DNA from: Pseudomonadota bacterium
Lineage (GTDB): Bacteria > Pseudomonadota > Gammaproteobacteria > JAJDOJ01
Length of the DNA: 64,000 nucleotides
Direction: 5' to 3'
Assembly: GCA_034722015.1 (NCBI GenBank)
Contig: JAYENI010000081.1
Span: 6,022-70,021 of the forward strand
The notes below the pieces were generated by a model. It was not told the origin of the DNA and searched no databases. It saw only the letters and a program-made list of their open reading frames with translations. The translations under genes were made by a program, and so were the position numbers. Position 1 is the stretch's first letter; the number at the start of each line of letters is the position of its first letter. This document shows, in pieces, positions 10,127-61,950 of this stretch.

Positions 10127-11749
10127 TCAGTGTCGGCCACCATCCATGACATCGAGTATTGCTAGGGCGGATTTGGCGGCCTTCTCTATCTCCAGGGTGT
10201 CCTCCAGCCGTTTACCGTGGGGGTGGCTCTTCTCCAGCCGTTGCGCGTGCCTGGAGATACCGTGGAGCAGTTTGCTTAACTTTTTCTGCAACTCATCGGC
10301 CTGCGCCTGTCTGTCGCGCTGCGAATGTTCCAGTTCTTCCCAGGCCTCCGCTGCACGCATGGAGGATTTCCACCATTCCACGAGACGGGCCTTGTGATCC
10401 GCCATGATGTTGACCGACTGGGCCATGGCATTCACCTCATCGCGCCCCCCCGGGAGGGTGGGTATACGCTCTATGGGTTCTTCGAAAGCCAGTTGGTCCA
10501 GAAATCCGGCGATGCGCCATAAGGGGCGTGTGATGCTTAGTGTGATAATCACCGCCGATAGTATGCCCATCAGGGTTGCCAGACCTGCCAACCACAGCAT
10601 GAACCGGACATTTGTCGTGGAGGCGTTACGAATGCGTTCGATGCTCTCCTGCATCGCCTGCTCGGCGTACAGGCCGTTTTTCTGCACCAGTCGGGTTACT
10701 TCAGCAACCGTGTCGCGCATCTCGCCTTGCAGTCGGTCGATTTCCCTGTTCTGGTCGACCAGGGCGAGAAAGTCACGGCGGTAGTCGCTGAGCAGGCCTT
10801 CGAACGCATCCTTGTCCACTTCGGAAACGTCACAAATGTCGAGCTGATTTTGAATCCGTACCAGTTCCTGCAGTGCCATGCCGACGTACTGCTGGTCACC
10901 GCGCAGCAGGTAGTCCTTCTCCCTTCTCCGCAGCTGCAGGACGTTGTTACCCAGGTGCGGGATGTAGTGGCTGGAGATCGAGGCCTCGATACGATCGGCG
11001 GCCTCGCTGAAGGGACCCGTGCCCCCCTGGACCTCATCCTGGACCAGGACCGCTTCCGAATAGGCGAGGAAGGCCTCCCGGTAGACCCCCGACTCCCACA
11101 ACAGCGCCTGTTTCATTTCCGGTTCCAGGCCAGACGCATTAACCTGCGCCTCGAATGCACCGATCTGTCGCAATACCTCGTCGCGGTACAGTGCTTCCCG
11201 CCTGAGCCCCAGGTCCTTTTCCGCCTGCCGGATCTGCAGCAGTTTCAGGTACAGGTTACCGACCTTGAAGTGCTCGGCCCTGTCCTCCAGCACGTGCGCG
11301 GTGTCGCGGAATGCGCCCTGGAGACCGGAATTGTGGTCCAGCCCCTTGGTGCGCCAGGCCTCGGCGATCGCATCAAAAAGTTGCCGGTAGGTGCGCACCA
11401 GTTCGGAGATTCGTGCCGCGACCTCCGCGCCCTCGGTGTCAACTTGTGCCAGGGCCTCCGTCTCCGTCATAACGCCATGGAGAGATTCGGTCACCGCTGA
11501 CGCAGTTTCCTCGTTTCGGTACAGGAGAAACTCCTTCTCGGCGCGGCGCGCCTCGAGCATCTGTTTCTCGATACGCAGGGCATGGCCCCATTTTTCCGCG
11601 AACACCGCCTCCAACCTCTCGTAGTCGGAGAGGGTGTGTTGCAGGGTCTGGTGGTATTGCCAGATAACGGCGAGAAACAGAAGGCCCACGAGGCCGAAAC
11701 TGAGACCGATCTTTTCGCCGATGCGAAATTGCGAATAAAAATGTTTCAT
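10127..11749 (-). CDS. Membrane sensor with periplasmic CHASE3-like helical repeats and HAMP domain, no recognisable output domain
   Basis: TM1 at the N-terminus. Three repeated EK(E/D)(F/L/Y)LL motifs in the periplasmic part. TM2 followed by a HAMP-like segment (ITRPLWRIAGFLDQLA...NAMAQSVNIM) and a C-terminal coiled coil. No kinase or MCP signalling domain. Confidence 0.6.
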   Translation of the reverse strand: MKHFYSQFRIGEKIGLSFGLVGLLFLAVIWQYHQTLQHTLSDYERLEAVFAEKWGHALRIEKQMLEARRAEKEFLLYRNEETASAVTESLHGVMTETEALAQVDTEGAEVAARISELVRTYRQLFDAIAEAWRTKGLDHNSGLQGAFRDTAHVLEDRAEHFKVGNLYLKLLQIRQAEKDLGLRREALYRDEVLRQIGAFEAQVNASGLEPEMKQALLWESGVYREAFLAYSEAVLVQDEVQGGTGPFSEAADRIEASISSHYIPHLGNNVLQLRRREKDYLLRGDQQYVGMALQELVRIQNQLDICDVSEVDKDAFEGLLSDYRRDFLALVDQNREIDRLQGEMRDTVAEVTRLVQKNGLYAEQAMQESIERIRNASTTNVRFMLWLAGLATLMGILSAVIITLSITRPLWRIAGFLDQLAFEEPIERIPTLPGGRDEVNAMAQSVNIMADHKARLVEWWKSSMRAAEAWEELEHSQRDRQAQADELQKKLSKLLHGISRHAQRLEKSHPHGKRLEDTLEIEKAAKSALAILDVMDGGRH

Positions 11750-22889: not shown

Positions 22890-23434
22890 ACGACGACAAG
22901 AAAGACGACCAGACCCCGACAGGTAGTGGTACTGAAATAGTCGGGCCTGTACCACAGATCATCCCCCTGACTGCCGGAATCGCAGTAGAGCATGGGTTGG
23001 AACGACAGTACGTCTACATTGGCGCAACGCTGGATCTGAACAAGGTCATGCCGAGTGGAGTGAAGTGGCAAAGCTTCAGCAAAAAATACGTGGAGTTCCG
23101 AAAGGTCGTACCCACACCCGGAACACTGAGCGAAGTTGATGACCACGCACGGGCGTTCATCGACTATGCCGGATACACCGAAGCCAAGGCGGAAGGCGCA
23201 GTGGTGTGGGTCATCTGGCGCGTATGGGAACTGAAAGGCAAGTCGAAGCTGATACTAGATGCAGATGCAAGACGCGATGTGCTCAATGCTATCGAAGCCA
23301 GGAAATTAATATTCGTAAATCGAAATAGATCGCAACAAAAAATATCATTGCCACGAAGGATATCGGACTCGGAACACGAAGACAGGCTGGCTACCTTGAT
23401 TGCTGTTGGTAAATATGCCAACATCCATCAATGA
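22886..23434 (+). CDS. Hypothetical protein (island)
   Basis: 182 aa, lower-GC 3' end, no family recognised. Confidence 0.35.
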   Translation: MNDDKKDDQTPTGSGTEIVGPVPQIIPLTAGIAVEHGLERQYVYIGATLDLNKVMPSGVKWQSFSKKYVEFRKVVPTPGTLSEVDDHARAFIDYAGYTEAKAEGAVVWVIWRVWELKGKSKLILDADARRDVLNAIEARKLIFVNRNRSQQKISLPRRISDSEHEDRLATLIAVGKYANIHQ

Positions 23435-48747: not shown

Positions 48748-50031
48748 ATGCTGCTCAGAGGCAAATCTTTCATTGTGATCTTTGCAGCGCTGATAGCGGC
48801 GGGCTGCGCCGGCGAGCGGCAAGGCGTCGACGTAAACCAGATCCTCTCCAGTCCCAAGGAGTATGTAGGCTCCGAGACGTGTATGACCTGCCACCTGGAG
48901 CATCATGACGCGTGGAAGAAGACGCTGCACAGCCGCATGATCCAGGACGTGCGGGCCAACGAGGATGCAATCATCCCCGTCTTCGACGAGGCGGCGATCC
49001 GGGAAGATCTGAAGAATCTCGACAAGAAGCTGAAGGTGCCAGCTGAAGAAATCTACATTCCGAAGAAAGAGGACATCCTCTACACCATCGGCAGCCAGTG
49101 GAAACAGCGTTATCTGATCGAGAAAGAGGGCGATCTCTTCATTTCCCCCGTCCAGTACAACATCGATACGGGCCGCTGGGTCAACTATCACGAGCATGAC
49201 TGGGACAAGCGGCCCTGGTTGAAGAAATGCGGGGGCTGCCACGCGACAGGCGTCGATCTCGAGCAGAAGACGTTTATGGAGCCCGGCGTCGGATGCGAGA
49301 GTTGTCATGGCAAGGGCTCATGGCATGCGGCGTTACCCAAGGCCGAGACCTACAAAAAGCGCGAAACGATTGTGAATCCCGAGAAGTTGACGATGGGGGT
49401 ATCGGTCCAGATCTGCGGATCCTGCCACAACCGCGGTAAGTCGACCCACGTCAAGGGTGCCGGCTGGCCGGTAGGGTACGAGCCGGGCAAGTCGCTGGAG
49501 GCCTATTACCAATCCACGTCTTTCGAGGCCGGCGACGTCAAGCACGTCTATGCCAACGAGTTTTCCAAGGGTCACCACCAGCAGTATATCGACTGGAAAC
49601 AGTCCAAGCACTCCAGGGAAGGTGTGACCTGCAACTCCTGTCATTACTCGCACGAACTGGGCCAGGGAGCAACCCGTTCCCAGACCGCTACCAAGGGATC
49701 CAAGGTCTGCTTCGAGTGTCACGAGCAGGTCAACAGGGAGGGGCCCCACTCGATACATTCGTTCGCCAATTGCGTTGGCTGCCATATGCCCAGGATCGCC
49801 AAGAGCGCGGAGTCGGGTGACATCCACAGTCACGTGTTCGTGACCCTGCTACCCAGGGACACCCTGGAGAATCCCGACCTGCCCAACTCCTGCGAGACCT
49901 GCCACGAGCACAAGGACCAGGACCTGAAGGAGCTGCAGGAGCGCTACGACGCACTCACAAAGCGTTCGTATCCCGAAGGGATGGAAAAGGCGGATTCCGG
50001 GGAGTCGGAGCAAAAGCCGGAGGAGGGGTAG
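48748..50031 (+). CDS. Octaheme c-type cytochrome lipoprotein
   Basis: Lipobox IAAGCAG. Eight CxxCH motifs: CMTCH, CGGCH, CESCH, CGSCH, CNSCH, CFECH, CVGCH, CETCH. Strong RBS GAGGGGAGGG. AT-rich upstream region containing TTGACA. Confidence 0.85.
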   Translation: MLLRGKSFIVIFAALIAAGCAGERQGVDVNQILSSPKEYVGSETCMTCHLEHHDAWKKTLHSRMIQDVRANEDAIIPVFDEAAIREDLKNLDKKLKVPAEEIYIPKKEDILYTIGSQWKQRYLIEKEGDLFISPVQYNIDTGRWVNYHEHDWDKRPWLKKCGGCHATGVDLEQKTFMEPGVGCESCHGKGSWHAALPKAETYKKRETIVNPEKLTMGVSVQICGSCHNRGKSTHVKGAGWPVGYEPGKSLEAYYQSTSFEAGDVKHVYANEFSKGHHQQYIDWKQSKHSREGVTCNSCHYSHELGQGATRSQTATKGSKVCFECHEQVNREGPHSIHSFANCVGCHMPRIAKSAESGDIHSHVFVTLLPRDTLENPDLPNSCETCHEHKDQDLKELQERYDALTKRSYPEGMEKADSGESEQKPEEG

Positions 50032-50049
50032 TCAGCGGGGGAGCGGCAC

Positions 50050-50727
50050 ATGGCTCTGCATCATCGATGGCGCGCGAAGCGTGACCTGATCCGGGCCACT
50101 GTTTTGGGTGGTCTCTGTGTGGTGTTCCTGCAGGCGTTTGTCGCAACGAACGCTTTTGCGGTATCGGCCCAGTCAACGGGCGCTGAAGATGCCGGCGCGC
50201 TGATACGCCGCTACCGGGACGAGATACAGAGTTCTGATTATTTTGATCCATCCGACAACGCGATGTCGTTGCAGTTCGGTCCCAGGTCGACGGCTGCACC
50301 CGCACCGGGACCGAAAGCGGATGCTCATGCAGGCGTCAAGGGATACACGTTTCGTCGCTGCGAAAACTGCCATGAGCAGGAGGCGAACAACCTGCATACG
50401 ATCCGCGGCAACAACACCTGTCGCCAGTGCCATCGCCGGGAACCCATTGCCTCGATCGATCACTATTTCTCGATCCTGAATCCCATCCGTCGCCACGCGT
50501 ATGTCTGCGCGAAATGCCATGAGGGGTCGAGCGCGTCGTTCGCCACCTATGTCGTGCACGAACCGGTCGCGGCCAGTATCGAGACCCGGGACCAGTTCCC
50601 GTTCCTCTACTACGCTTACTGGTTCATGTTCTGGTTGCTTCTGGGCGTGCTTCTCATCTTTGTCCCCCACGGCATCGGCTGGTGGTTGCGCGAGTGGTTC
50701 GTCAAAAGGCGCCGGGAGGCCACGTGA
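50050..50727 (+). CDS. Triheme c-type cytochrome with C-terminal TM anchor
   Basis: CENCH, CRQCH, CAKCH; C-terminal LYYAYWFMFWLLLGVLLIFV. Confidence 0.75.
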   Translation: MALHHRWRAKRDLIRATVLGGLCVVFLQAFVATNAFAVSAQSTGAEDAGALIRRYRDEIQSSDYFDPSDNAMSLQFGPRSTAAPAPGPKADAHAGVKGYTFRRCENCHEQEANNLHTIRGNNTCRQCHRREPIASIDHYFSILNPIRRHAYVCAKCHEGSSASFATYVVHEPVAASIETRDQFPFLYYAYWFMFWLLLGVLLIFVPHGIGWWLREWFVKRRREAT

Positions 50728-50732
50728 AATCC

Positions 50733-51557
50733 ATGGACAAACCTGTCAGACGATTTACGCGCTTTGATCGCCTTACACACCTGTGGCTGATTCTCACCTT
50801 TATGGTGCTTGCCATCACCGGTACCGGACGTCTCTACGACTCCACGTACTGGGGGCGTTCCCTGCTCGACCTTTTCGGTGGCGAAGACCAGGCGATCCTG
50901 GTGCACATCTGGGCGGGATGGCTGATGACGATCGGATTCGGCGTGCACATTCTGTATCTGTTCACCAGGGTTCGATGGAGAGCACCGGGAAACAGTCTGT
51001 TCGGACCGGATTCACTGGTTCCCGTCTGGAGGGATTTCAAACAGTTCGGCCAACAGGTCCTCTGGTTTTTCGGCATCGGCAGGGACCCGGAATTTGAGCG
51101 CTGGACCTATTGGGAAAAGTTTGACTACTGGGCGGTGTTCTGGGGAATCCCGATCCTGTTCGTGACCGGGCTGATGTTGATCTACCCGGTGGAAACGGCA
51201 CGTGTCGTTCCCGGATGGACCCTGAACGTCGCGCTACTGATCCATCGCGCCGAGGCAATCCTCGCCGTCAGTTACATCATCCTCATCCACTTGATGGTCG
51301 GACATTTCCGCCGGTCCACGTTCCCGCTCAACGAGGCGATGTTCTCAGGGAGCGTACCGCTCGAACGTTTGAAAGACGAAAAGCCCTTGTGGGTAGCACG
51401 TCTCGATCGTCTGAACCAGTTGAAAGACCTTGCCACAACCCCACCCGCACTCTGGTTCCGGATGCTGTATTTCGTTTTCGGCTATGCCGTCATCGGACTC
51501 GGTGTGTACCTGGTGATCTGGGGGATCTACTACAGTCGGTTTGTCAGTTTGCACTGA
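50733..51557 (+). CDS. Membrane b-type cytochrome (Ni/Fe-hydrogenase / FdnI-like cytochrome b, PF01292-like)
   Basis: RFTRFDRLTHLWLILTFMVLAITG and later ...HRAEAILAVSYIILIHLMVGHF: 4-5 TM segments with conserved His pairs. Confidence 0.7.
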   Translation: MDKPVRRFTRFDRLTHLWLILTFMVLAITGTGRLYDSTYWGRSLLDLFGGEDQAILVHIWAGWLMTIGFGVHILYLFTRVRWRAPGNSLFGPDSLVPVWRDFKQFGQQVLWFFGIGRDPEFERWTYWEKFDYWAVFWGIPILFVTGLMLIYPVETARVVPGWTLNVALLIHRAEAILAVSYIILIHLMVGHFRRSTFPLNEAMFSGSVPLERLKDEKPLWVARLDRLNQLKDLATTPPALWFRMLYFVFGYAVIGLGVYLVIWGIYYSRFVSLH

Positions 51558-51968: not shown

Positions 51969-54695
51969 GTGTTTGTCATGCCCACGAATGACCCGAGTTT
52001 CGCCTGGCATGCCCAGGATGTGGATGCCGTGCTCGAACGGCTGGAAACCAGGGATACCGGGCTCGAACAGGTCGAGGCCAACCTACGCCTGCAACGCTAC
52101 GGCCCGAACCGGCTGCCGCCGCCCAAACGCCGGGGTTCCTGGCTGCGGTTCCTGATCCAGTTCCACAACGTCCTGATCTATGTCCTGATTGCCGCGGCGC
52201 TGGTGACCGCCCTGCTGGGGCACTGGGTGGATACCGGCGTCATCGTCGCCGTCGTTCTCATCAACGCGCTGGTGGGGTTCGTCCAGGAAGGCAAGGCCGA
52301 ACGCGCGCTGGACGCCATCCGCAACCTGCTGTCTCCCCATGCCACCGTGCTGCGCGACCGGAAGCAGGTGGTGCTTCCCGCCGAGCAGGTCGTGCCGGGG
52401 GACGTCGTACTGCTGCAGCCGGGTGACAAGGTCCCTGCCGATCTGCGCCTGATTCGCGTCAGGGACCTGAGAATCGAGGAGGCCGCGCTGACCGGAGAGT
52501 CGGTGCCCGTGGACAAGACCCGGGGTGAGGTGGAGGAGGAGACGGTCCTGGGCGACCGGACCAGTATGGCATTCGCCAGCACCCTGGTGACCTACGGTCA
52601 GGGCGCCGGGATCGTCGTCGGTACCGGTGAGGACACCGAGATCGGCCATATCAGCGCCCTTCTGGGGAAGGTACACACGCTGACGACTCCGTTGCTGCGG
52701 CAGATCTCCCGATTCGGGCGCTGGCTGACCGCGGCCATCCTGTTCATGGCCGCCTGTACGTCCGCTTACGGCATCCTGGTCTGGGAAAATCCACTCAGCG
52801 ACATGTTTCTCGCCGCGGTCGGCCTGGCGGTTGCCGCCATTCCCGAGGGACTCCCCGCGATCATCACCATCACGCTCGCGATCGGCGTGCAGCGCATGGC
52901 CGCCCGCAACGGGATCATTCGTCTGCTTCCCGCAGTGGAGACGCTCGGCGCGGTTTCAGTTGTCTGTTCGGACAAGACGGGGACACTGACGCGGAACGAA
53001 ATGACGGTCCAGACCGTTGCCAGTGCCCGTAACCTGTTCGACGTGGCCGGGGTGGGCTACAACCCGCACGGCGGGATCCGTGTGAACGAAGAGGAGATAG
53101 ATCCCGAGACGCGCCCGGGACTGATGGAGCTGGCGCGCGCCAGCCTGCTCTGCAACGACGCCGAAGTGAATCTCGACGACGGGCGATGGAAGCTGTCGGG
53201 CGATCCCACCGAAGGCGCGCTGTATACCCTGGCCCTGAAATGCGGCCTCGATCCGTTGTTTCAGAAGGAGTCGCTGCCCCGTACCGACACGATTCCGTTC
53301 GATTCCCGGCACCGCTTCATGGCGACTTTGCATCACGACCATGCGGGTCACGGGTTCATCTATATCAAGGGCGCACCGGAGCGCCTGGTGGATCGGTGCG
53401 CATGGCAGCGCATCGAGGGCGAGGATCAGCCGATCGACATCGGCTACTGGTACCGGCGCGTGGAGGAGATCGCGCGGCGCGGTCAGCGAACCCTGGCACT
53501 GGCGTTCCGTTCCGCGGAACCGGACCACGGCGAGCTGAAGTTCGACCACGTCGAGGGGGGGCTCACCCTGCTCGGTCTGGTCGGGATCATCGATCCGCCC
53601 CGCGTAGAGGCAATCGAGGCCGTGAAGCAGTGCCGCTCGGCGGGAGTCACCGTCAAGATGATCACCGGGGACCACGCGGTGACAGCCCATGCGGTCGCCG
53701 ACCAGATGGGTATCGGCGACGGCGGCAGTACGCTGACCGGCGACGAGATCGAAGGGTCGGCCGAAGTGGAGTTGCGTGATGCCGTCCGGAACATCGACGT
53801 ATTTGCCCGTACCAGCCCGGAACACAAACTGCGCCTGGTGGAGGCGCTGCAGGCCAACGGCACCGTGCTGGCCATGACCGGCGACGGCGTCAACGACGCC
53901 CCCGCCCTGAAGCGCGCGGACGTGGGCGTGGCCATGGGCATCAACGGCACCGAGGTGGCGAAGGAGTCCGCTGAAATGGTGCTGGCCGACGACAACTTCG
54001 CGTCCATTGTCCACGCCATCGAAGAGGGCCGCACGGTCTACGACAATATCAAGAAATCCATTCTCTTCATTCTTCCCACCAACGGTGCGGAGGCGTTCAC
54101 CCTCATTGCGGCCATCCTGCTGGGCTATCACCTGCCCATCACCCCGGTCCAGATCCTCTGGGTGAACATGATCACGGCGGTCACGCTGGCACTGTCACTG
54201 GCCTTCGAACCGCCGGAGACCGATATCATGAACCGCCCGCCCAGGGACCCGGACGAGCCCATCCTGTCGGGGTTTCTCATCTGGCGCACGCTCTTCGTCT
54301 CCCTGCTCATGGTGGCGGGAATCTTCGGCCTGTTCCTGTGGGAGATCGATTCCGGCACATCGCTGGACACGGCAAGGACGGTCGCCGTCAATACGCTGGT
54401 GATGTTCGAGGTCTTCTACCTGCTCAACACGCGATACATCCGGCGCTCGATCCTGTCGCGCAAGGGGCTGACGGGGAACCGCAAGGTGCTCGTCGCCATC
54501 GTCCTGGTGGTCTTCTTCCAGTTTCTTTTTACCTACCACCCATGGATGCAACAGCTTTTTCACACCACGCCCCTGGATGCCAAAACCTGGGCGGTGCTGG
54601 TACTGGTCGCGTCATCGGTGTTCTTTGTCGTCGAGCTGGAGAAGTATTTCGCCAGATATTGCAGTTCCAGGAGTAAGGCGATTTCTGTCAAATGA
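51969..54695 (+). CDS. Cation-transporting P-type ATPase (P2-type, Ca2+/Mg2+-like)
   Basis: CSDKTGTLT phosphorylation motif; TGES; MITGDH...GDGVNDAPAL; 10 TM segments. Confidence 0.9.
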   Translation: MFVMPTNDPSFAWHAQDVDAVLERLETRDTGLEQVEANLRLQRYGPNRLPPPKRRGSWLRFLIQFHNVLIYVLIAAALVTALLGHWVDTGVIVAVVLINALVGFVQEGKAERALDAIRNLLSPHATVLRDRKQVVLPAEQVVPGDVVLLQPGDKVPADLRLIRVRDLRIEEAALTGESVPVDKTRGEVEEETVLGDRTSMAFASTLVTYGQGAGIVVGTGEDTEIGHISALLGKVHTLTTPLLRQISRFGRWLTAAILFMAACTSAYGILVWENPLSDMFLAAVGLAVAAIPEGLPAIITITLAIGVQRMAARNGIIRLLPAVETLGAVSVVCSDKTGTLTRNEMTVQTVASARNLFDVAGVGYNPHGGIRVNEEEIDPETRPGLMELARASLLCNDAEVNLDDGRWKLSGDPTEGALYTLALKCGLDPLFQKESLPRTDTIPFDSRHRFMATLHHDHAGHGFIYIKGAPERLVDRCAWQRIEGEDQPIDIGYWYRRVEEIARRGQRTLALAFRSAEPDHGELKFDHVEGGLTLLGLVGIIDPPRVEAIEAVKQCRSAGVTVKMITGDHAVTAHAVADQMGIGDGGSTLTGDEIEGSAEVELRDAVRNIDVFARTSPEHKLRLVEALQANGTVLAMTGDGVNDAPALKRADVGVAMGINGTEVAKESAEMVLADDNFASIVHAIEEGRTVYDNIKKSILFILPTNGAEAFTLIAAILLGYHLPITPVQILWVNMITAVTLALSLAFEPPETDIMNRPPRDPDEPILSGFLIWRTLFVSLLMVAGIFGLFLWEIDSGTSLDTARTVAVNTLVMFEVFYLLNTRYIRRSILSRKGLTGNRKVLVAIVLVVFFQFLFTYHPWMQQLFHTTPLDAKTWAVLVLVASSVFFVVELEKYFARYCSSRSKAISVK

Positions 54696-55003: not shown

Positions 55004-55816
55004 TCACGGCCCGTCGGCACAACGAAACCCGATGGATCCGTAGATGCTGTCGCCACTGAACGGCGGCTTGACGTTTCGGTAGGAGCTGCGCAGGTTGTCG
55101 GTATTCTCGTCCCAGGAGCCGCCACGGACGACGCGCTGACGGCCATTTTCGGGGCCGACGAGGTCGCCTTTCGCGTACAGGCGCGTCAGGGCATCGGGGG
55201 CGTACCAGTTCATCACCCATTCCCCTGCGTTGCCGTGCATGTCGCGGAGGCCGAACGCGTTGGCTTCGCGGCTGCCGATGGGCCAGGTGCGGTCTTCACC
55301 GCAGCCATCCGGTTCGTCCGGGACGCTGCCCATGGTATGGCCGTCATCGAGGATGGCCTGCTTGCAGCTCACCTCGCCGCCCCAGGGATAGGGTGAGGTG
55401 CTGCCGGCACGGGCCGCTTTCTCCCATTCGGCCTCGGTCGGCAGGCGGCCCTGTCGGGTCGCGCAGTAGTCGAGCGCCTGCTGCCAGTCCACACAGTTGA
55501 CCGGGTGACCACCGCGATCCGGACTGCCGACGTTACAGTACTTGTTGCGGGCGTGGTCCTTGGGCCGGTTGCAGGCGCCGCTGTCGATGCAACGCGTGTA
55601 CTCGTCCACCGTGACCTCGTAGCGGTCGATGCGAAACGCCGGGACATCCACGGTGGTCCCGCCCGGTGCGCCTTCGTCGTCGCCGCAGGCCTTGTCACCG
55701 GTCGAGCAGCCCATCTGGAAAGGACCGGCCGGAATCCGGACCGGGTCCGGCGTCTGTGATGCGGTTGCGGTGGCTATGCCCGTTACGCCAGCCAGGAGCA
55801 GGACAGGAATCTTCAT
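55004..55816 (-). CDS. Secreted formylglycine-generating-enzyme (FGE/SUMF1) domain protein
   Basis: Signal peptide MKIPVLLLAGVTGIATATA. Family motifs RVVRGGSWDENTDNLRSSYR, HPVNCVDWQQALDYC and HGNAGEWV. Confidence 0.8.
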   Translation of the reverse strand: MKIPVLLLAGVTGIATATASQTPDPVRIPAGPFQMGCSTGDKACGDDEGAPGGTTVDVPAFRIDRYEVTVDEYTRCIDSGACNRPKDHARNKYCNVGSPDRGGHPVNCVDWQQALDYCATRQGRLPTEAEWEKAARAGSTSPYPWGGEVSCKQAILDDGHTMGSVPDEPDGCGEDRTWPIGSREANAFGLRDMHGNAGEWVMNWYAPDALTRLYAKGDLVGPENGRQRVVRGGSWDENTDNLRSSYRNVKPPFSGDSIYGSIGFRCADGP

Positions 55817-56446
55817 TTACGGGTTTCCTTGTTTGTCCGGTTCTTCGGTGAGCGCGAACAACACACCCTTCTCGACCCACAGGGTCACCTTGATGCCGCG
55901 CGACCAGGTCGAAACCGGCATCTCGCCCTTGTCGTAGTCCGGGATCCGGCGGAATGTTCTCGAGTCATAGCCGACTTCGTAGAGGGTGCGCAGGTCGTCT
56001 TCCCCCACGGACCCGAAGCGCAGCTGGGCCGCGGTAACGCCCTGCAGCGAACAGTAGCGACCGCCGAGCAGGGTCAGTCCACTGTCCGCCAGATAGCGGC
56101 TTTCCACCGGCATGAAGTCGAGTCGCGTGAAATAGTTCTGGATCCCCGCGATGCGCGTCGTATTGACCTCGAGCGGCTTCAGGTGCAGGTGGTTCTCGAC
56201 CACCTCGGAGGCGATCTCGTCGATCAGGTTTTCCGGACCGCCGGGCCGGGCGAGCCACAGGGTCAGGCCCGCCACGAGCAGGGCCACGGCCGCGGCGCCG
56301 GCCCAGGCGCCGTAGCGATTGCGCTCCCCTTCGGCCGGCCGGTCGTCACCGGCAGGTTGCAGAGACCTCAGGGCATCCAGTTGGCCCGCGTCGAGTTGCC
56401 TGGCGTTCAGGTGGTCCTTGAGGACCCGCTTGAGTGGACGCTTCAT
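55817..56446 (-). CDS. Anti-sigma factor (single TM)
   Basis: ATGA overlap with the sigma stop. N-terminal cytoplasmic region, TM AWAGAAAVALLVAGLTLWLA, periplasmic C-terminus. Confidence 0.6.
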   Translation of the reverse strand: MKRPLKRVLKDHLNARQLDAGQLDALRSLQPAGDDRPAEGERNRYGAWAGAAAVALLVAGLTLWLARPGGPENLIDEIASEVVENHLHLKPLEVNTTRIAGIQNYFTRLDFMPVESRYLADSGLTLLGGRYCSLQGVTAAQLRFGSVGEDDLRTLYEVGYDSRTFRRIPDYDKGEMPVSTWSRGIKVTLWVEKGVLFALTEEPDKQGNP

Positions 56447-56943
56447 GTGCCTGCCCCCTCCCTGATCCCGTCCCCGCCGAGGTCGAAACGGGCGATCTTC
56501 TTCTTCAGGCGGTGTATCCGCGAAAGGATGGTGCCCCGGGGCGAATCCAGCTGGGTCGCGATCTCGCGGGCGGTCATCTCCTCGTAGGCCCACAGATGCA
56601 ACAGTTCACGCTCCAGCGGATCGAGCCGGGCCAGGATCGACTCGATCATCTGCCGGTCGATCACCAGTTCCCCGGGATCCGGCATGGCCATGGACACCAG
56701 GCTGTCTCCGCCATCTTCCAGGGACTCGTGCGGGTAGCGCTTTTCCTTTCTGAGCTGGTCGATGTAGCGGTTGCGCATGACCCTGCGCAGATAAAACCCG
56801 GCGCCGTCGACGGGCCGCCGCGCGGGATCCATTTTCAGGTAGCACTCAATGGCGTCCTGCAGCAGGTCGTAGGCCAGAGTCTCGTCGTTGGTGAGCGAGA
56901 TGCCGTAGCGGTACAGGCCGTTGAGCTGCGCGTCACTGAACAC
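56443..56943 (-). CDS. ECF-family RNA polymerase sigma factor
   Basis: Region 2 (DLLQDAIECYLK...RVMRNRYIDQLR) and region 4 HTH (LTAREIATQLDSPRGTILSRIHRLKKKI). Confidence 0.8.
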   Translation of the reverse strand: MFSDAQLNGLYRYGISLTNDETLAYDLLQDAIECYLKMDPARRPVDGAGFYLRRVMRNRYIDQLRKEKRYPHESLEDGGDSLVSMAMPDPGELVIDRQMIESILARLDPLERELLHLWAYEEMTAREIATQLDSPRGTILSRIHRLKKKIARFDLGGDGIREGAGT

Positions 56944-57736
56944 CGGTTTGCCCCGTTTGTTCGTTCTCCAGGCGGAATCCGCAGATCCATCCGCGAGCGA
57001 CGAGGTTGGGGAGGCGGGTCATGGCGCCTGCCAGGCGCGGGTCTGTCGACAGTTGCGTCAGTGTCCGGACCGAAGCGATCGCCTCCAGCAGGGCGAATGC
57101 CTCCGCGTCGACCCGGACGATCTCTACCTCCAATTCGGCGCGGACGATTGCCAGACGGTCTGGCGTGCCGTCGGCGCGGATCTCGCGGGGCGCCTCTCCG
57201 TTCCTGTGGCGGCGCCAGAGTTCGAATACCGGCCAGTCGCTCTGCATCGGATAAAGGCTTGCGCTGAGGGTGAAGACGAGGCGTTCGGGCCGGTTCGCGG
57301 CGTCCGCGAAGTCCGTATAGTCGAACGGTGGATCATCCGGTGCGAACAGGGCCTGGTGCCAGTGGTATTCCAGCAGGGCCAGGTCGTGCAGATAGGGCAG
57401 TGCCGCAAGTTCCGTGTCGTGTTCCCGGAGGAAATCCGGAAATCCCACGCCGTACCGGTTCAGGTCCGGATCGGTCGTCGGACAACGCCAGGCGTATTCC
57501 CGGGCCAGTGTGGCGAAGACGCGCTCACCGATCACCTCCCGGCACACCGGGTAGATGCTCTCCAGCGCGGCGATGTGGGCCCCGCTGACGTTGTGTCGAT
57601 AGATAGCCAGCCGGTCCGGGTTGCTCAAGGTGCCGTATTGCCGGACCAGCGCCGCCCCCGCCTCCAGCTCCCGTTCGTTGCGGAACGGGCTGAGCGCGGC
57701 GCAGAGACGGGTCTGGATTTCCGCGAGGGAATTCAT
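56933..57736 (-). CDS. DUF2063 family protein (MNIO partner, BufC/MbnC-like)
   Basis: Translationally coupled (ATGA) to the DUF692 gene. Sequence pattern of DUF2063 putative-DNA-binding proteins. 267 aa. Confidence 0.75.
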   Translation of the reverse strand: MNSLAEIQTRLCAALSPFRNERELEAGAALVRQYGTLSNPDRLAIYRHNVSGAHIAALESIYPVCREVIGERVFATLAREYAWRCPTTDPDLNRYGVGFPDFLREHDTELAALPYLHDLALLEYHWHQALFAPDDPPFDYTDFADAANRPERLVFTLSASLYPMQSDWPVFELWRRHRNGEAPREIRADGTPDRLAIVRAELEVEIVRVDAEAFALLEAIASVRTLTQLSTDPRLAGAMTRLPNLVARGWICGFRLENEQTGQTGVQ

Positions 57737-58602
57737 GCCGATGCCGCCTCGGCGGGCGTATCGACGTGGCGCGCAACGAGGGCCTCGGCCTTTTGTCCCT
57801 CCGCCTGCAAGACCTCGAATGCGGGAATATCCTTGTCCCATTCGATCAGAGTGGGGATGTCCGGCTGCCGCCGGACGAAATCCTCGTACAGCCGCCAAAC
57901 GGGCGGCGTAACCGGGTGGTTGTGGGCGTCCAGCAGGTAACCCTCGCGGGTCTCGTAGCCGGCGAGGTGGATCTCGCGCACCCGCGCCACCGGGATCCGG
58001 TCCAGGTACGCCCGCGCGTCGAATCCATGATTCACCGCGTTGACGTAGACGTTGTTGATGTCGAGCAGCAGCTCGCAGTCGGCGCGCTCCAGCAGTTCGG
58101 CGATGAAATCCGCCTCGTCGATGTCCGAGGCCTGATAGCTGAGATAGCTGGAGACGTTCTCCACCAGGATCCGTCGACCCAGGAACTCCTGCACGAACTG
58201 GATCCTCGATGAGAGATGCCGCAGGGCTTCCTCGTTGCAGGGCAACGGGAGCAGGTCGTGGTAGTTGTGCCGCCGGAAACGTGTGAAACTCAGGTGATCC
58301 GACACCCAGGCGGGCTCGGCGTCCCGGACCAGTCGGCGGATGGCCTTCAGATAATCCATATCCAGCGGGTCCGTCCCGCCCAGGGACATCCCCACGCAGT
58401 GGAAGGTGAGGGGATAATGCTCCCGCACGGTCGCCAGTTGTCGCGGAATAGCGCCGCCGGTAGCCAGATAATTGTCGGCCAGGATCTCGAACCAGGGAAT
58501 GTCCGGACGATCGCGGAGAACCTCCGCAACATGCGTCGAGCGCAGCCCCAGGCCCACACCCCCAACACCGCTCCGTGCCCGTGAGGGCACGTGAGCGGGC
58601 AT
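57733..58602 (-). CDS. MNIO family enzyme (DUF692/UPF0276; MbnB/BufB-like)
   Basis: VGLGLRSTHVAEVL... TIM-barrel DUF692 pattern. Start taken at MPAHV (58602). Adjacent to the DUF2282 precursor. Confidence 0.85.
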   Translation of the reverse strand: MPAHVPSRARSGVGGVGLGLRSTHVAEVLRDRPDIPWFEILADNYLATGGAIPRQLATVREHYPLTFHCVGMSLGGTDPLDMDYLKAIRRLVRDAEPAWVSDHLSFTRFRRHNYHDLLPLPCNEEALRHLSSRIQFVQEFLGRRILVENVSSYLSYQASDIDEADFIAELLERADCELLLDINNVYVNAVNHGFDARAYLDRIPVARVREIHLAGYETREGYLLDAHNHPVTPPVWRLYEDFVRRQPDIPTLIEWDKDIPAFEVLQAEGQKAEALVARHVDTPAEAASA

Positions 58603-58616
58603 GTCTGGCGATGCCG

Positions 58617-58910
58617 TCACTTCTTGGCCGGTTTGACCGCGGCCACACTGCCACCGGTGATCTTGGTACACGTGCCCTCGGGGACGTAGATCCATTCGGT
58701 CGCCATATTGTCCTTCGCGGCCTGGCTGGCGCAACCGTGCTTGCCGTCCAACGCGCCACAATCGTTCATGCCGGCCTTGGAGATGCCCGCACACTTCTCC
58801 CAGTTCGCGGGCTGGTCCGGCACGGCCTGTGCAGTACCGGCGGCAATGCCCGCACCCAGGGCCAGAATACCGGCGATCGCGGTCTTGGTGAGGTCGCTTT
58901 CTTTCTTCAT
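58617..58910 (-). CDS. DUF2282 family secreted Cys-containing precursor peptide (bufferin-like RiPP precursor)
   Basis: Signal peptide MKKESDLTKTAIAGILALGAGIAAGTAQA. Core EKCAGISKAGMNDCGALDGKHGCASQAAKDNMATEWIYVPEGTCTKI with 4 conserved Cys. Confidence 0.8.
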   Translation of the reverse strand: MKKESDLTKTAIAGILALGAGIAAGTAQAVPDQPANWEKCAGISKAGMNDCGALDGKHGCASQAAKDNMATEWIYVPEGTCTKITGGSVAAVKPAKK

Positions 58911-59747
58911 GGGATGTTCCTGTTGTTGGAAAGGGAAGGATAGGATCGCGGTGCCGCGGCCCTCACCCTGTAAACGACCGGGGAGGGGATTTGATTGCAT
59001 GGGGAACTGGAAACACGGTTGCCATCATCCAACGTGGCGTGCCGATCGGGCATTGCCTGCGAGTACGCGGGTCGCGAAGATGGATCCAGCCCGTCTGTCA
59101 CGGAACAAAGGCGGATGCAATTGTGCACGCCATGACTTTCAGTCCGCGAGATTCAGCGGCACAGGTATTCGGCGGATCCCATCTTCGATGGCATGCCTTC
59201 CTTCAGATCAAGGTGTTCGTAAGAATCCGGAATCTGCTGAAGTTTCACAAAGGACTCCAGTTCTTCCACGGTCACGCAACTTCCAGAGATCCGTGTCGGG
59301 TATTCTGCGGAATTCCGTCGTCCAGCGTAGTCATTGAATGTCGTGTTCTGCCGTTCACTGAAATCGTTATCTGTGTTCATGCGCCCGTCAGTGTGCGATC
59401 AGCCATTGGTCATCATGACACACTCAGTGAAAAACGGGCTTGGGGGAACAGGAAGGAATTCGAATGGGGCAGGGGATACCGGAAGGATTGCACATCGTGC
59501 TGATCTCCTCTTTCAGACGCTCGATCTCCGCCGGCCCATCTACCGGCGCACGGCCGCCTACGGCCACTTCGGTAGAACGTTGCTCGGGTTCTCCCGGGGG
59601 AAAACGTATCGCACGGAGGACCTGAGGGTCGCCTGCCGACTCCCGTTACGGTGACGCTCCGGTGACAATGTCGAATCGTTGCGATAACAGCCACACGGGG
59701 CGGAGCGCCCAACGATGATGCACGCGGCACTCCGCCCCCCTGCCCGC

Positions 59748-60311
59748 CTAATCCAGATCGATAACGAACAGGCAATCGAAGGTCGCCGTAGCGGGAAAAT
59801 CAGCCAGGTTGACCAGGCCGGACAGGCGGGACGTGCCCGTGGAGGAACTGTAACGCCCGGTTCCACTGAGCACGGCGTTGCCATCGCCCGCCGCGCCGGT
59901 CATATGCGTAAAGACCTGACCATTGGCAGAGACCGTAGGCTGGATCACGGGCTGTACCGTGGTCAGGCCGCGTGTCACCAGCTCACCTCTCAACTCACCT
60001 CCGGCCAGATGGAAAGAGGTGGTGCCGACCAGTTTGATGGCGTCGCCTTCCGTAGTGATATTGGACAGGCAATCGGTTGCCGTTCCAATGCGTCGCCGGG
60101 TCTTCTGATTGAACAGATCGACGTCGAAGCAAACCGCCTCGTCGTCCAGGGTGTCGCCGTCGATATCGGGAACCAGCTTGCTGTAACCGGTTCCCGTGCC
60201 GACCAGATTGAGCACGAGGTGTTTTACGCTTTCGGCACTGACGGACAAGGGCAGACTCAGCGCAACACTCAGGAACATCGATACTGCGTGTTTTTTGGAT
60301 AACATTTTCAT
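59748..60311 (-). CDS. Secreted hypothetical protein
   Basis: Signal peptide MKMLSKKHAVSMFLSVALSLPLSVSA. 187 aa, Gly/Thr-rich, no family recognised. Confidence 0.5.
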   Translation of the reverse strand: MKMLSKKHAVSMFLSVALSLPLSVSAESVKHLVLNLVGTGTGYSKLVPDIDGDTLDDEAVCFDVDLFNQKTRRRIGTATDCLSNITTEGDAIKLVGTTSFHLAGGELRGELVTRGLTTVQPVIQPTVSANGQVFTHMTGAAGDGNAVLSGTGRYSSSTGTSRLSGLVNLADFPATATFDCLFVIDLD

Positions 60312-60985: not shown

Positions 60986-61447
60986 TTACCGAGCCAGCCT
61001 TGGATCGAAATCGAACGGCTCACTTGATGCCGTCGCGATGACCGAGCCGAAACCGGGGTGCCCCGGATTCAACAGAACGTTGCGCTGTTGTGGCACGATG
61101 GTGCTGGGTACGATTAGCGCGAGCGACTGAAGACTGAGGGCCCATTGGTCCCCGATGTCGGCGGTTGACGAAGGTGGTGGATCGCGCCGCCAGTTTTTTG
61201 GCAACGCAGTTTTATCCAGCGACATGATGCTGTCGTCGGATAGCTTCAGCCTGGGCAGCAGGTACTGATTGAGTATCTCTCCACGATGCAGGTGCACGAG
61301 AAGTTCGAGCGCGGCCAGAGAAACGCTTTCAGATGCGTAAACCATCGCGACTCCCTTGCTGTTCCAGCGGCCGCCGTGGGCCTTCGCCCCTGAACCGTCC
61401 AGCGCGGTGTCGGCAAGGCGTGCCTTCACCAACCGAAAGACCCGCAT
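60986..61447 (-). CDS. RES-domain toxin (RES-Xre type II TA)
   Basis: AHGGRWNSKGVAMVYASESVSLAALE contains the RES motif R...E...S. Confidence 0.75.
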   Translation of the reverse strand: MRVFRLVKARLADTALDGSGAKAHGGRWNSKGVAMVYASESVSLAALELLVHLHRGEILNQYLLPRLKLSDDSIMSLDKTALPKNWRRDPPPSSTADIGDQWALSLQSLALIVPSTIVPQQRNVLLNPGHPGFGSVIATASSEPFDFDPRLAR

Positions 61448-61950
61448 CAGGTATAGACGCCGTGTTCCAGCCGACCGATCAGGTCCCGAACCTCGCCGGC
61501 GCCGGCCTCGGTATCCAGGTGCTGAAGCGGCCTGATCCCGCCAAGTGCCCTGGCGGGCTCCGACAGCCAGCTTCGGGCGGACTCGGCATCCCCCTCGAAC
61601 AGTTGAACCGCACTCCGGTAGATTTCCGCGATCCGATAGATCCGGTCGCTTTCTTCCACGGAAAGCAATCCGGCGGCGCTCTTGCGACGACGCGTCAGCG
61701 TAGCGGGGGCAATCCCGGCGACCTTCAGCAGTGTCTGCCGGGGGAGGCCCAGATCGTTGGCCAGTTTTTAGATGACGTTGACCGGGAAACCGCGGTGAAT
61801 CCGTTTCACCATCTCGGTGCGGTCCTCTGCGAGTCCCAGACGATGGAAGATCCCTTTGCCACCACGCTCTCCAGATTTGCCTGCCAGGCTCCGAGACGGT
61901 TCGATGGGAACGAAAACTTTTGTTTGGCTGGTCACCGTTGGCTCCTGCAT
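61447..61950 (-). pseudogene. Xre/ParS/MbcA-family antitoxin (DUF2384) interrupted by an in-frame TAA
   Basis: Two same-frame segments, 61771-61950 and 61450-61767, separated by TAA at 61768-61770 that falls inside the HTH (…HRGFPVNVI*KLANDLGLPRQTLLKV…). C-terminal part: ESDRIYRIAEIYRSAVQLFEGDAESARSWLSEP...GEVRDLIGRLEHGVY. Confidence 0.6.

Follow-up and report, generated by a model that had tools for sequence, protein, structure and literature searches.

A Buf1-type bufferin operon carrying its own ECF sigma factor and an FGE-fold protein devoid of the FGE catalytic cysteines

The locus described here lies in a 64 kb stretch of DNA (the window, meaning the whole of the DNA analysed) and is a Buf1-type bufferin cluster that probably combines a built-in, self-amplifying ECF switch with an optional FGE-fold stress effector of the same regulon. 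Because the catalytic cysteines that define genuine FGEs are missing from this FGE-fold protein, the locus varies a known bufferin system in a new way and brings no new chemistry. The protein is most probably neither a formylglycine-generating enzyme nor a second cysteine-modifying enzyme, and the annotation 'FGE' does not imply a second cysteine oxidation, a tempting inference that is corrected here. Bufferins are recently described and very widespread copper-chelating RiPPs, the regulation and accessory genes of which are poorly defined. The locus defines a common marine subtype in which an ECF sigma factor and a new, unnamed family of putative anti-sigma factors are encoded inside the biosynthetic transcript; it yields a precise candidate promoter motif for its sigma factor, and it brings to light a secreted protein with the FGE fold, conserved and repeatedly associated with clusters for thiooxazole metallophores.

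Operon layout and bufferin core

All six ORFs proposed earlier are present as placed and form a tightly coupled operon on the minus strand (55004–58999). The gene order, 5' to 3', is bufA, bufB, bufC, ECF sigma, putative anti-sigma and a secreted FGE-sulfatase-domain gene. The features are as follows, by window position.

58972–58999, minus strand: ECF-type promoter, TGCAATCAAA (58999–58990)-N13-TCGTTT (58977–58972), ~60 nt ahead of the start of bufA
58617–58910, minus strand: bufA, Buf1/DUF2282 precursor, 97 aa (Pfam PF10048, E = 3.8e-21, 52 of 53 profile positions)
57733–58602, minus strand: bufB, bufferin maturase of the MNIO type (multinuclear non-haem iron oxidative enzyme; PF05114, E = 2.7e-105)
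56933–57736, minus strand: bufC, DUF2063 (HvfC_N; PME-type 1) MNIO partner (PF09836, E = 9e-19)
56443–56943, minus strand: ECF sigma factor, 166 aa, GTG start (Sigma70_r2 and r4_2, regions 2 and 4)
55817–56446, minus strand: putative anti-sigma factor, 209 aa (position after the sigma gene and single-pass topology)
55004–55816, minus strand: secreted FGE-fold protein without the catalytic Cys, 270 aa, SPase I signal peptide (PF03781, E = 7e-51)

The junctions are close throughout. A gap of 14 nt separates bufA from bufB, bufB and bufC share an ATGA overlap, the end of bufC overlaps the GTG start of the sigma gene by 11 nt, the sigma and anti-sigma genes again overlap at ATGA, and the anti-sigma gene passes into the FGE-like gene through TAAATG, with zero spacer. 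A scan of the minus strand gave no sigma-70-like promoter and no terminator-like site within the operon. The genes are translationally coupled, and the FGE-domain gene belongs to the same transcription unit, as the earlier note had held. The upper bound given there, 59000, stems from an in-frame upstream ATG; bufA itself starts at 58910, and the promoter occupies 58972–58999.

Profile matches to DUF2282 (58617–58910), DUF692/MNIO (57733–58602) and DUF2063 support the earlier assignment of a Buf1-type bufferin/MNIO RiPP operon. BufB scores 357.4 bits against the NCBIfam MNIO_BufB equivalog NF050167 (cut-off 310). BufC reaches 40 bits against the HvfC family model, below the cut-off of 142, and its C-terminal RRE-like part is therefore only putative. 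As read from the sequence, BufA has a Sec signal peptide with an AxA cleavage site (...AGTAQA/VPDQP) and four core Cys. This core is kept across more than 35 related operons and is essentially identical in operons with and without the FGE-like gene.

The absence of a nearby DoxX gene is likewise upheld. In a tblastn search of the 64 kb window, two Pfam-verified DoxX queries from related clusters gave no hit (best E 1.4), and in a Pfam scan of the larger flanking ORFs (~41.5–63.1 kb) neither DoxX nor a sulfatase or copper-resistance gene appeared. Bufferins can be modified, and can protect against copper, without DoxX (PMC11626156). Moreover, among 13,976 MNIO neighbourhoods DoxX occurs in only 40% and sigma-70-family genes in 23% (PMC12452194 Table S1), and ~31 of 36 related loci are built alike, so that neither the sigma gene nor the absence of DoxX is as unusual as had been thought.

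Promoter, sigma factor and putative anti-sigma factor

The promoter motif has the consensus TGCAATCAAA-N13-TCGTcT across related loci. It is found at fixed spacing, 36–146 nt upstream of bufA, in ~35 of them; where bufABC is lacking, it precedes the sigma gene. Forty occurrences were observed in 1.76 Mb of related loci against 0.8 expected from shuffles. The motif is missing from a Thiobacillus operon, which has a different sigma/anti-sigma pair. The sigma factor itself scores 61 bits against TIGR02937 (cut-off 42.9), and its gene has a constant position in all related operons; the anti-sigma gene always comes directly after it.

The product of 55817–56446 is a putative anti-sigma factor by position and topology only. 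A short helical stretch at its N-terminus is followed by a transmembrane helix (~residues 46–65) and a conserved periplasmic domain of ~130 aa, and the AlphaFold model (pLDDT 82) likewise has a single transmembrane helix. The family alignment places the conserved motifs NHLHxKPLE ... GGRYCSLQG ... WVEKGxLFALTE in the periplasmic domain. The protein matches no Pfam family, NrsF (PF06532) and DUF3379 (PF11859) included, and no NCBIfam family; it is not NrsF, and Pfam has no family for it. Its relatives number ~208 proteins, all unnamed. DUF3379 gives weak matches to 5 of 25 members of this family (best E = 1.7e-4) and none to the window protein, and hhalign against the DUF3379 protein of one related locus (L170) was negative.

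Uncultured marine Gammaproteobacteria commonly have an operon of this type, in which bufABC is combined with the sigma gene and this non-NrsF anti-sigma gene. Without DoxX, it is present in ~31 of the 36 related metagenomic loci that have enough upstream sequence. The FGE-like gene is an optional addition to it, lying directly downstream of the anti-sigma gene in ~12 of the 48 loci with enough downstream sequence, about a quarter. Full copies of the six-gene operon occur in four related loci (L021, L083, L098 and L169).

In the mechanism we propose, the promoter and the coupling of the genes are direct observations, and the biosynthetic steps are drawn by homology. As in Caulobacter, BufB and BufC would act in the cytoplasm and turn the two central Cys of BufA into 5-thiooxazoles. 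BufA would then be exported by Sec, its outer Cys pair would form a disulphide, and the product would chelate copper in the periplasm. The single ECF-type promoter upstream of bufA would transcribe the operon. An envelope signal, probably metal stress, is predicted to free sigma from its putative anti-sigma factor; because sigma and the membrane anti-sigma protein are encoded inside the same transcript, this release would amplify expression.

The FGE-fold protein

The fold of the last protein of the operon is that of FGEs. FGE structures are the top Foldseek matches (3e-11, for a model with a mean pLDDT of only 68), and the best PDB sequence matches are bona fide FGEs (E ~1e-31), as would be expected of a true formylglycine-generating or cysteine-oxidizing enzyme acting on BufA or on a sulfatase. 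That identity is contradicted at the level of the active site. Profile alignment with 5nxl, 6s07 and 1y1e sets GGSW---DENxxNLR (DENkaNLR) of this family opposite GGSFLCHESYCNRYR of true FGEs, and therefore both Cu(I)-binding catalytic Cys (LCHxSYC) are missing. The two columns hold no Cys in any of the 25 aligned members, a three-residue deletion and non-Cys residues taking their place. A CxPxR motif is absent from BufA. Non-overlapping window ORFs of at least 100 aa carry no sulfatase signature, the Pfam-scanned flanking ORFs contain no sulfatase domain, and none of the inspected sequences of related clusters is sulfatase-like; the FGE-domain gene is not associated with sulfatases. The related loci scanned by tblastn showed no conserved neighbour. 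With no catalytic Cys, no CxPxR and no sulfatase, the earlier suggestion of a second Cys-directed modification by this protein is therefore unsupported, its gene being in addition optional and mostly stand-alone. We regard a true FGE activity as very improbable.

The family is tight, with 60–79% identity and ten invariant Cys, and its genes recur beside several kinds of thiooxazole-metallophore cluster, a result that is new relative to the earlier note, as is the non-NrsF character of the anti-sigma factor. They adjoin a Buf1 cluster with DoxX (L030) and two clusters of the EGKCG/oxazolin type (L024 and L032), none of which has a sigma/anti-sigma pair. In L170, which combines Buf1, DoxX, sigma and DUF3379, the FGE-like gene has the same position, here after the DUF3379 anti-sigma gene. 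Adjacency to MNIO clusters of these several kinds, Buf1 with the sigma pair included, is ~20-fold over chance, where the chance rate is a rough estimate and not a computed one. The linked genes come from Gamma- and Betaproteobacteria and their products are spread over four or more subclades when the family is set out as a tree. In published neighbourhood surveys the FGE-like protein is not listed among domains in at least 5% of neighbourhoods.

Such recurrence would suit a protein that serves thiooxazole metallophores specifically in the periplasm, engaged in a final oxidation or maturation after Sec export or in the handling of Cu-bufferin, much like PvdO. The protein aligns over its full length (residues 21–268) with PvdO 5hha at 80 bits and has a signal peptide, and published fusions join Buf1, cytochrome c and FGE-sulfatase domains (PMC12452194). 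Moreover, the residues after Cys3 of BufA read CASQ in 5 of the 6 sigma-type operons with the FGE-like gene and CAGQ in all those without, a split that may, however, be purely phylogenetic. Other observations count against such a partnership. Operons of one and the same type may have the FGE-like gene or lack it, and in locus L120 this gene lies under the same promoter, in the order promoter, sigma, anti-sigma, FGE, while the 660 nt upstream contain no bufABC. Of 54 genomic orthologues (at least 55% identity), just 6 adjoin MNIO or buf genes and no other neighbour is conserved; ~90% stand alone. Identity is 57–68% irrespective of whether the neighbouring precursor is Buf1 or EGKCG, and the protein is therefore not tuned to a particular peptide. 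Finally, the score with the NCBIfam PvdO equivalog (NF051459) is 88.7 bits, below the required 500, and the likeness to PvdO is one of fold, over the full length.

A dedicated role of this protein with metallophores thus seems to us unlikely, if worth keeping in view; the ~20-fold enrichment and the fusions fit direct partnership at least as well as co-regulation alone. Equally tentative, and rather to be doubted, is its extension to the whole ~270-aa family (GGSWDEN, ten invariant Cys) as a hitherto overlooked partner that 5-thiooxazole metallophores would have in the periplasm, enlisted several times by Buf1 and by EGKCG/oxazolin clusters and sometimes fused to Buf1 and cytochrome c. If this were true, the exported peptide or its copper complex would be the target of the family, through PvdO-like oxidation, Cu(I) oxidation or transfer, or recycling.

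The position of the gene also bears on a regulatory role, in which the protein, a co-sensor that binds a ligand in the periplasm, would modulate the anti-sigma factor in the way that RseB acts on RseA. Two loci (L120 and L088) carry sigma–anti-sigma–FGE three-gene modules without bufABC, the FGE-like gene lies immediately after the anti-sigma gene whenever both are present, and L170 keeps this arrangement with a different anti-sigma family. The gene nevertheless adjoins MNIO clusters that lack a sigma/anti-sigma pair (L030, L024 and L032), ~75% of the operons that encode this sigma pair lack it, and most orthologues have no sigma gene nearby, so that we judge a co-sensor improbable. Most likely the FGE-fold protein is an optional member of the ECF regulon, a separate periplasmic stress effector whose function would not need the bufferin.

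Comparison with known systems

The FGE-fold protein shares its fold with human SUMF1 and with the FGEs of T. curvata and S. coelicolor. Whereas those are true FGEs, both Cu(I)-binding Cys are absent here, no sulfatase or CxPxR substrate is nearby and the export signal is a bacterial Sec signal. The Cys of the GFRC and AxxYC motifs align with two Cys of human FGE, C218 and C365, which we take to be a disulphide pair; the matching pairing here is putative. Pseudomonas PvdO (5hha; NCBIfam name for NF051459, dihydropyoverdine dehydrogenase) is likewise a periplasmic FGE-fold protein of ~280 aa that lacks the FGE catalytic Cys and works within a metallophore pathway. The ten invariant Cys and the GGSWDEN motif are, in contrast, specific to the present family, and no pyoverdine genes accompany it.

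As in the buf1ABCD operon of Caulobacter vibrioides and the gig operons of Cupriavidus and Legionella (PMC11626156; PMC12452194), the precursor is a DUF2282 protein with a Sec signal peptide and four Cys, the BufB-type MNIO exceeds the equivalog cut-off, the DUF2063 partner is encoded immediately downstream and control is by an ECF sigma factor. Here, however, DoxX (bufD) is missing and a terminal FGE-fold gene is added. The sigma and anti-sigma genes lie inside the operon, downstream of bufC, whereas those systems have a separate sigF–nrsF unit; the anti-sigma protein is single-pass and has no NrsF domain, whereas NrsF is multi-pass; and the promoter motif, TGCAATCAAA-N13-TCGTcT, also differs. 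The Buf1|Cytochrom_C|FGE-sulfatase fusions (for example WP_160059411.1; PMC12452194) physically link a DUF2282 domain to an FGE-sulfatase domain, whereas the two are here separate genes four positions apart, with no cytochrome c domain. A functional connection between bufferins and FGE-fold proteins is thus independently supported by these fusions.

Gene content and promoter of the bufferin operon

The six minus-strand open reading frames at 55004-58999 agree in identity with what the earlier note had proposed, the Pfam and NCBIfam profile searches being positive for DUF2282 at 58617-58910 and for MNIO (DUF692) at 57733-58602.

Features of the bufferin operon
58999-58972, minus strand: promoter copy, TGCAATCAAA-N13-TCGTcT motif
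58617-58910, minus strand: bufA, precursor (DUF2282/BufA1, Pfam E 3.8e-21)
57733-58602, minus strand: bufB, MNIO (PF05114, E 2.7e-105; NCBIfam MNIO_BufB equivalog, 357 bits, cut-off 310)
56933-57736, minus strand: bufC, DUF2063 partner (Pfam E 9e-19)
56443-56943, minus strand: ECF sigma factor (regions 2 and 4 matched)
55817-56446, minus strand: putative anti-sigma factor (no match in Pfam or NCBIfam)
55004-55816, minus strand: FGE-like gene (FGE-sulfatase domain, Pfam E 7e-51)

As read from the sequence, a 14-nt gap separates bufA from bufB, ATGA overlaps join bufB to bufC and the sigma gene to the anti-sigma gene, the GTG start of the sigma gene lies inside the end of bufC (11-nt overlap), and the anti-sigma and FGE-like genes meet at TAAATG with zero spacer. 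No sigma-70-like promoter or terminator-like site was found inside the operon on the minus strand. In BufA, a signal peptide (…AGTAQA/VPDQP) precedes a core with four cysteines. An Rfam scan of the whole window gave zero matches, and bufA is therefore preceded by no riboswitch or leader.

Aligning the bufA upstream regions of related loci yielded the motif TGCAATCAAA-N13-TCGTcT, which at fixed spacing was counted 40 times across the 1.76 Mb of related loci collected, versus 0.8 in shuffles. Nearly all copies precede bufA by 36-146 nt; where bufABC is lacking, they precede the sigma gene by 134-361 nt. An autoregulated ECF promoter driving the whole operon would be expected to show such a pattern, and co-occurrence suggests that the motif belongs to this particular sigma factor. 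The FGE-like gene is co-transcribed with the others as a member of this regulon. The motif is absent from a Thiobacillus operon (L170), whose sigma/anti-sigma pair differs, and neither stand-alone FGE-like genes nor the divergent FGE-like gene of the related locus L041 showed it upstream. A second GCAATCAA...TCGT match in the window (23375-23403, minus strand), with a spacer of 16 nt versus 13 nt, is most likely due to chance and no second regulon promoter.

The absence of DoxX nearby, also claimed earlier, held up: tblastn of the whole window with two Pfam-verified DoxX proteins from related clusters gave no match, and the larger flanking ORFs, as scanned with Pfam, include no DoxX, sulfatase or copper-resistance gene. 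These flanks encode a multihaem cytochrome with cytochrome b561, a P-type cation ATPase, thioredoxin 2, a helicase, a RES/Xre toxin-antitoxin pair and a methyltransferase. The cytochromes form a three-gene plus-strand unit (48748-51557) of a 427-aa multihaem cytochrome c with c552/c554/MtrC-like matches, a second, small c-type cytochrome of 225 aa and a 291-aa membrane protein of cytochrome b561 type, followed by the 908-aa ATPase (51969-54695), which is convergent with the bufferin operon. The type II toxin-antitoxin pair lies ~2 kb upstream of the operon (60986-61668, minus strand) and consists of a 153-aa RES toxin (PF08808, 6e-29) behind a 73-aa Xre/MbcA/ParS-type antitoxin (PF09722, 7.5e-17), their stop and start codons overlapping. 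Within 59000-60311 (minus strand), ~840 bp without a recognisable gene separate the promoter from the next upstream ORF (59748-60311), a 187-aa secreted protein with no Pfam or NCBIfam match and no homologue in related loci; a 75-aa ORF at 59153-59380 has no matches.

The putative anti-sigma factor and distribution of the operon

We infer that the 55817-56446 product acts as an anti-sigma factor because of its invariable place after the sigma gene, the overlapping start and stop codons and its topology. The protein (209 aa) falls in a family whose ~208 members, all of them unnamed, come from uncultured Gammaproteobacteria. Its AlphaFold model (mean pLDDT 82) has two short helices at the N terminus, a single transmembrane helix and, in the periplasm, a conserved α/β domain; Foldseek with this model returned only non-significant RseB/MucB-like matches (E ~0.02). 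DUF3379 gave weak matches in 5 of 25 family members, and hhalign of the family against the DUF3379 protein of L170 was negative. The protein is not NrsF.

Metagenome contigs were scanned with the anti-sigma alignment and then by tblastn with all six proteins. The order bufA-bufB-bufC-sigma-antisigma recurs in ~31 of the 36 loci with 2.7 kb or more sequenced upstream, none of these operons containing DoxX. Of 48 loci with enough sequence on the downstream side, ~12 have an FGE-like gene directly after the anti-sigma gene; L083 and L169 contain complete six-gene operons whose genes were annotated with Pfam, and tblastn detected all six genes in L021 and L098 as well. At least three loci carry sigma and anti-sigma genes only. 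The arrangement promoter-sigma-antisigma-FGE (278 aa), with bufABC absent, is found in L120 and, with the FGE-like gene internally deleted, in L088. The deletion is in frame and leaves 89 aa (L088:6634-6903; counterpart L120:1769-2605). To the eye, the ORF after the FGE-like gene in both loci looks like an IS200-like REP-associated tyrosine transposase, and L088 has cbb3 oxidase genes and part of a Cu-ATPase N-terminal domain (PF12156) upstream.

The FGE-like family and its neighbourhoods

The FGE-like proteins (~270 aa, 60-79% identity) have a signal peptide, ten invariant cysteines and a GGSWDEN motif, and occur in Oceanospirillales, Chromatiales, Thiotrichales, Shewanella and Thiobacillus. 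Homologues at 40-44% identity were set aside, being domains within larger multidomain proteins that are otherwise unrelated and lie in no buf context. In a PDB profile search true FGEs rank first (E ~1e-31), PvdO (5hha) aligns over its full length, and SUMF2 and PorK/GldK, which we take to lack the catalytic cysteine pair likewise, also match. In the alignment to true FGEs, GGSW---DENkaNLR stands opposite GGSFLCHESYCNRYR, and therefore both Cu(I)-binding catalytic cysteines are missing. True FGE activity is thus essentially excluded at the level of the active site; of the earlier view of a co-transcribed Cys-oxidising enzyme, co-transcription stands and Cys oxidation does not. All NCBIfam equivalogs scored far under their cut-offs, BufA has no CxPxR motif, and a regex search of non-overlapping window ORFs of at least 100 aa found no sulfatase signature. 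Foldseek retrieved the FGE fold only; the model is only moderate (mean pLDDT 68, <50 at residues 226-261) and was therefore not used for reasoning about single residues.

A survey of one genome per species gave 54 loci with orthologues at ≥55% identity. Most stand alone, with no conserved neighbours past genus-level synteny, the largest shared neighbour cluster resembling generic sensor histidine kinases as judged from sequence. Six of the 54 adjoin MNIO or buf genes, in varying architectures.

FGE-like loci adjoining MNIO or buf genes
L021: six-gene operon identical in layout to that of the window
L041: bufABC-sigma-antisigma, FGE-like gene divergent
L030: bufA-MNIO-DUF2063-DoxX-FGE, genes overlapping
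L027: DUF2282 remnant plus DoxX-like sequence upstream of the FGE-like gene
L024 and L032: EGKCG-repeat precursor-MNIO-DUF2063-DoxX, FGE-like gene divergent

A further Thiobacillus MAG, L170, has bufA-MNIO-DUF2063-DoxX-sigma-DUF3379-FGE. Against a chance adjacency that we estimate ourselves at ~0.5% of genes (assuming a few clusters per ~4 Mb genome), 6/54 is a roughly 20-fold enrichment. Cluster-linked members fall into at least four subclades of a crude neighbour-joining tree, and the differing architectures independently argue for repeated association of FGE-like genes with these clusters.

The seven-gene Buf1 operon of L170 (L170:2450-6801, Thiobacillus sp. MAG GCA_030681905.1) is a betaproteobacterial counterpart that has another anti-sigma family and lacks the TGCAATCAAA promoter; downstream lie genes for two HEAT-repeat proteins, a Thioredox_DsbH protein and a DsbD_N protein. 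Two loci in Thioalkalispiraceae MAGs, L024:6642-10804 and L032:555-3891, encode EGKCG-repeat precursors of oxazolin/fontiphorin type; in both, the FGE-like gene lies ~0.4-0.6 kb from the precursor gene, with a DUF1841 gene downstream of it. In L030 the FGE-like gene is directly followed by one for a P19/Iron_transport (PF10634) periplasmic protein (10816-11439, minus strand) and then by one for a large membrane protein. P19-type proteins bind copper, and this gene would be another metal-related neighbour.

Role of the FGE-like protein and comparison with known bufferin systems

We argue that the FGE-like protein is most likely a periplasmic effector that serves the same stress response independently, and no bufferin-tailoring enzyme, because its gene is optional within the operon type, sits under the same promoter without bufABC and is mostly stand-alone elsewhere, because the protein is equally conserved beside two unrelated precursor types, and because BufA cores are alike with and without it bar one substitution. 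The BufA residue two places past Cys3 is Ser (HxCASQA) in five of the six sigma-type operons with an FGE-like gene, and Gly (CAGQ) in 18/18 operons shown without one. This sole precursor difference tracking the gene may be phylogenetic signal only. Against these points, the recurrent adjacency to metallophore clusters and a published fusion of Buf1, Cytochrom_C and FGE-sulfatase domains favour a direct metallophore partner, acting in a PvdO-like post-export step or in handling the Cu complex, which we consider unlikely. A role as co-sensor for the anti-sigma factor seems to us more doubtful still. The analysis also defines an ECF promoter, adds a new anti-sigma family and puts forward a candidate for an accessory protein to thiooxazole metallophores.

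Bufferins are Cu-chelating RiPPs exported as precursors by Sec, in which BufB and BufC turn Cys into 5-thiooxazoles; DoxX is dispensable for modification and function (PMC11626156). Among 13,976 MNIO neighbourhoods, DUF2063 occurs in 71%, DoxX in 40%, DUF2282 in 39%, the Sigma-70 family in 23% and NrsF in 12% (PMC12452194 Table S1). Sigma control and a missing DoxX, which the earlier note had thought unusual, are thus not unusual on their own; its observation is confirmed and its interpretation borne out in part. FGE-sulfatase is missing from Table S1, whose domains reach ≥5%, although rare Buf1-Cytochrom_C-FGE-sulfatase fusion proteins such as WP_160059411.1 are reported (PMC12452194), and an FGE-domain gene has not been described as a cluster component. 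The bufABC genes of the window are expected to work like the characterised Buf1 system, its precursor, MNIO and DUF2063 partner being present and only the dispensable DoxX missing.
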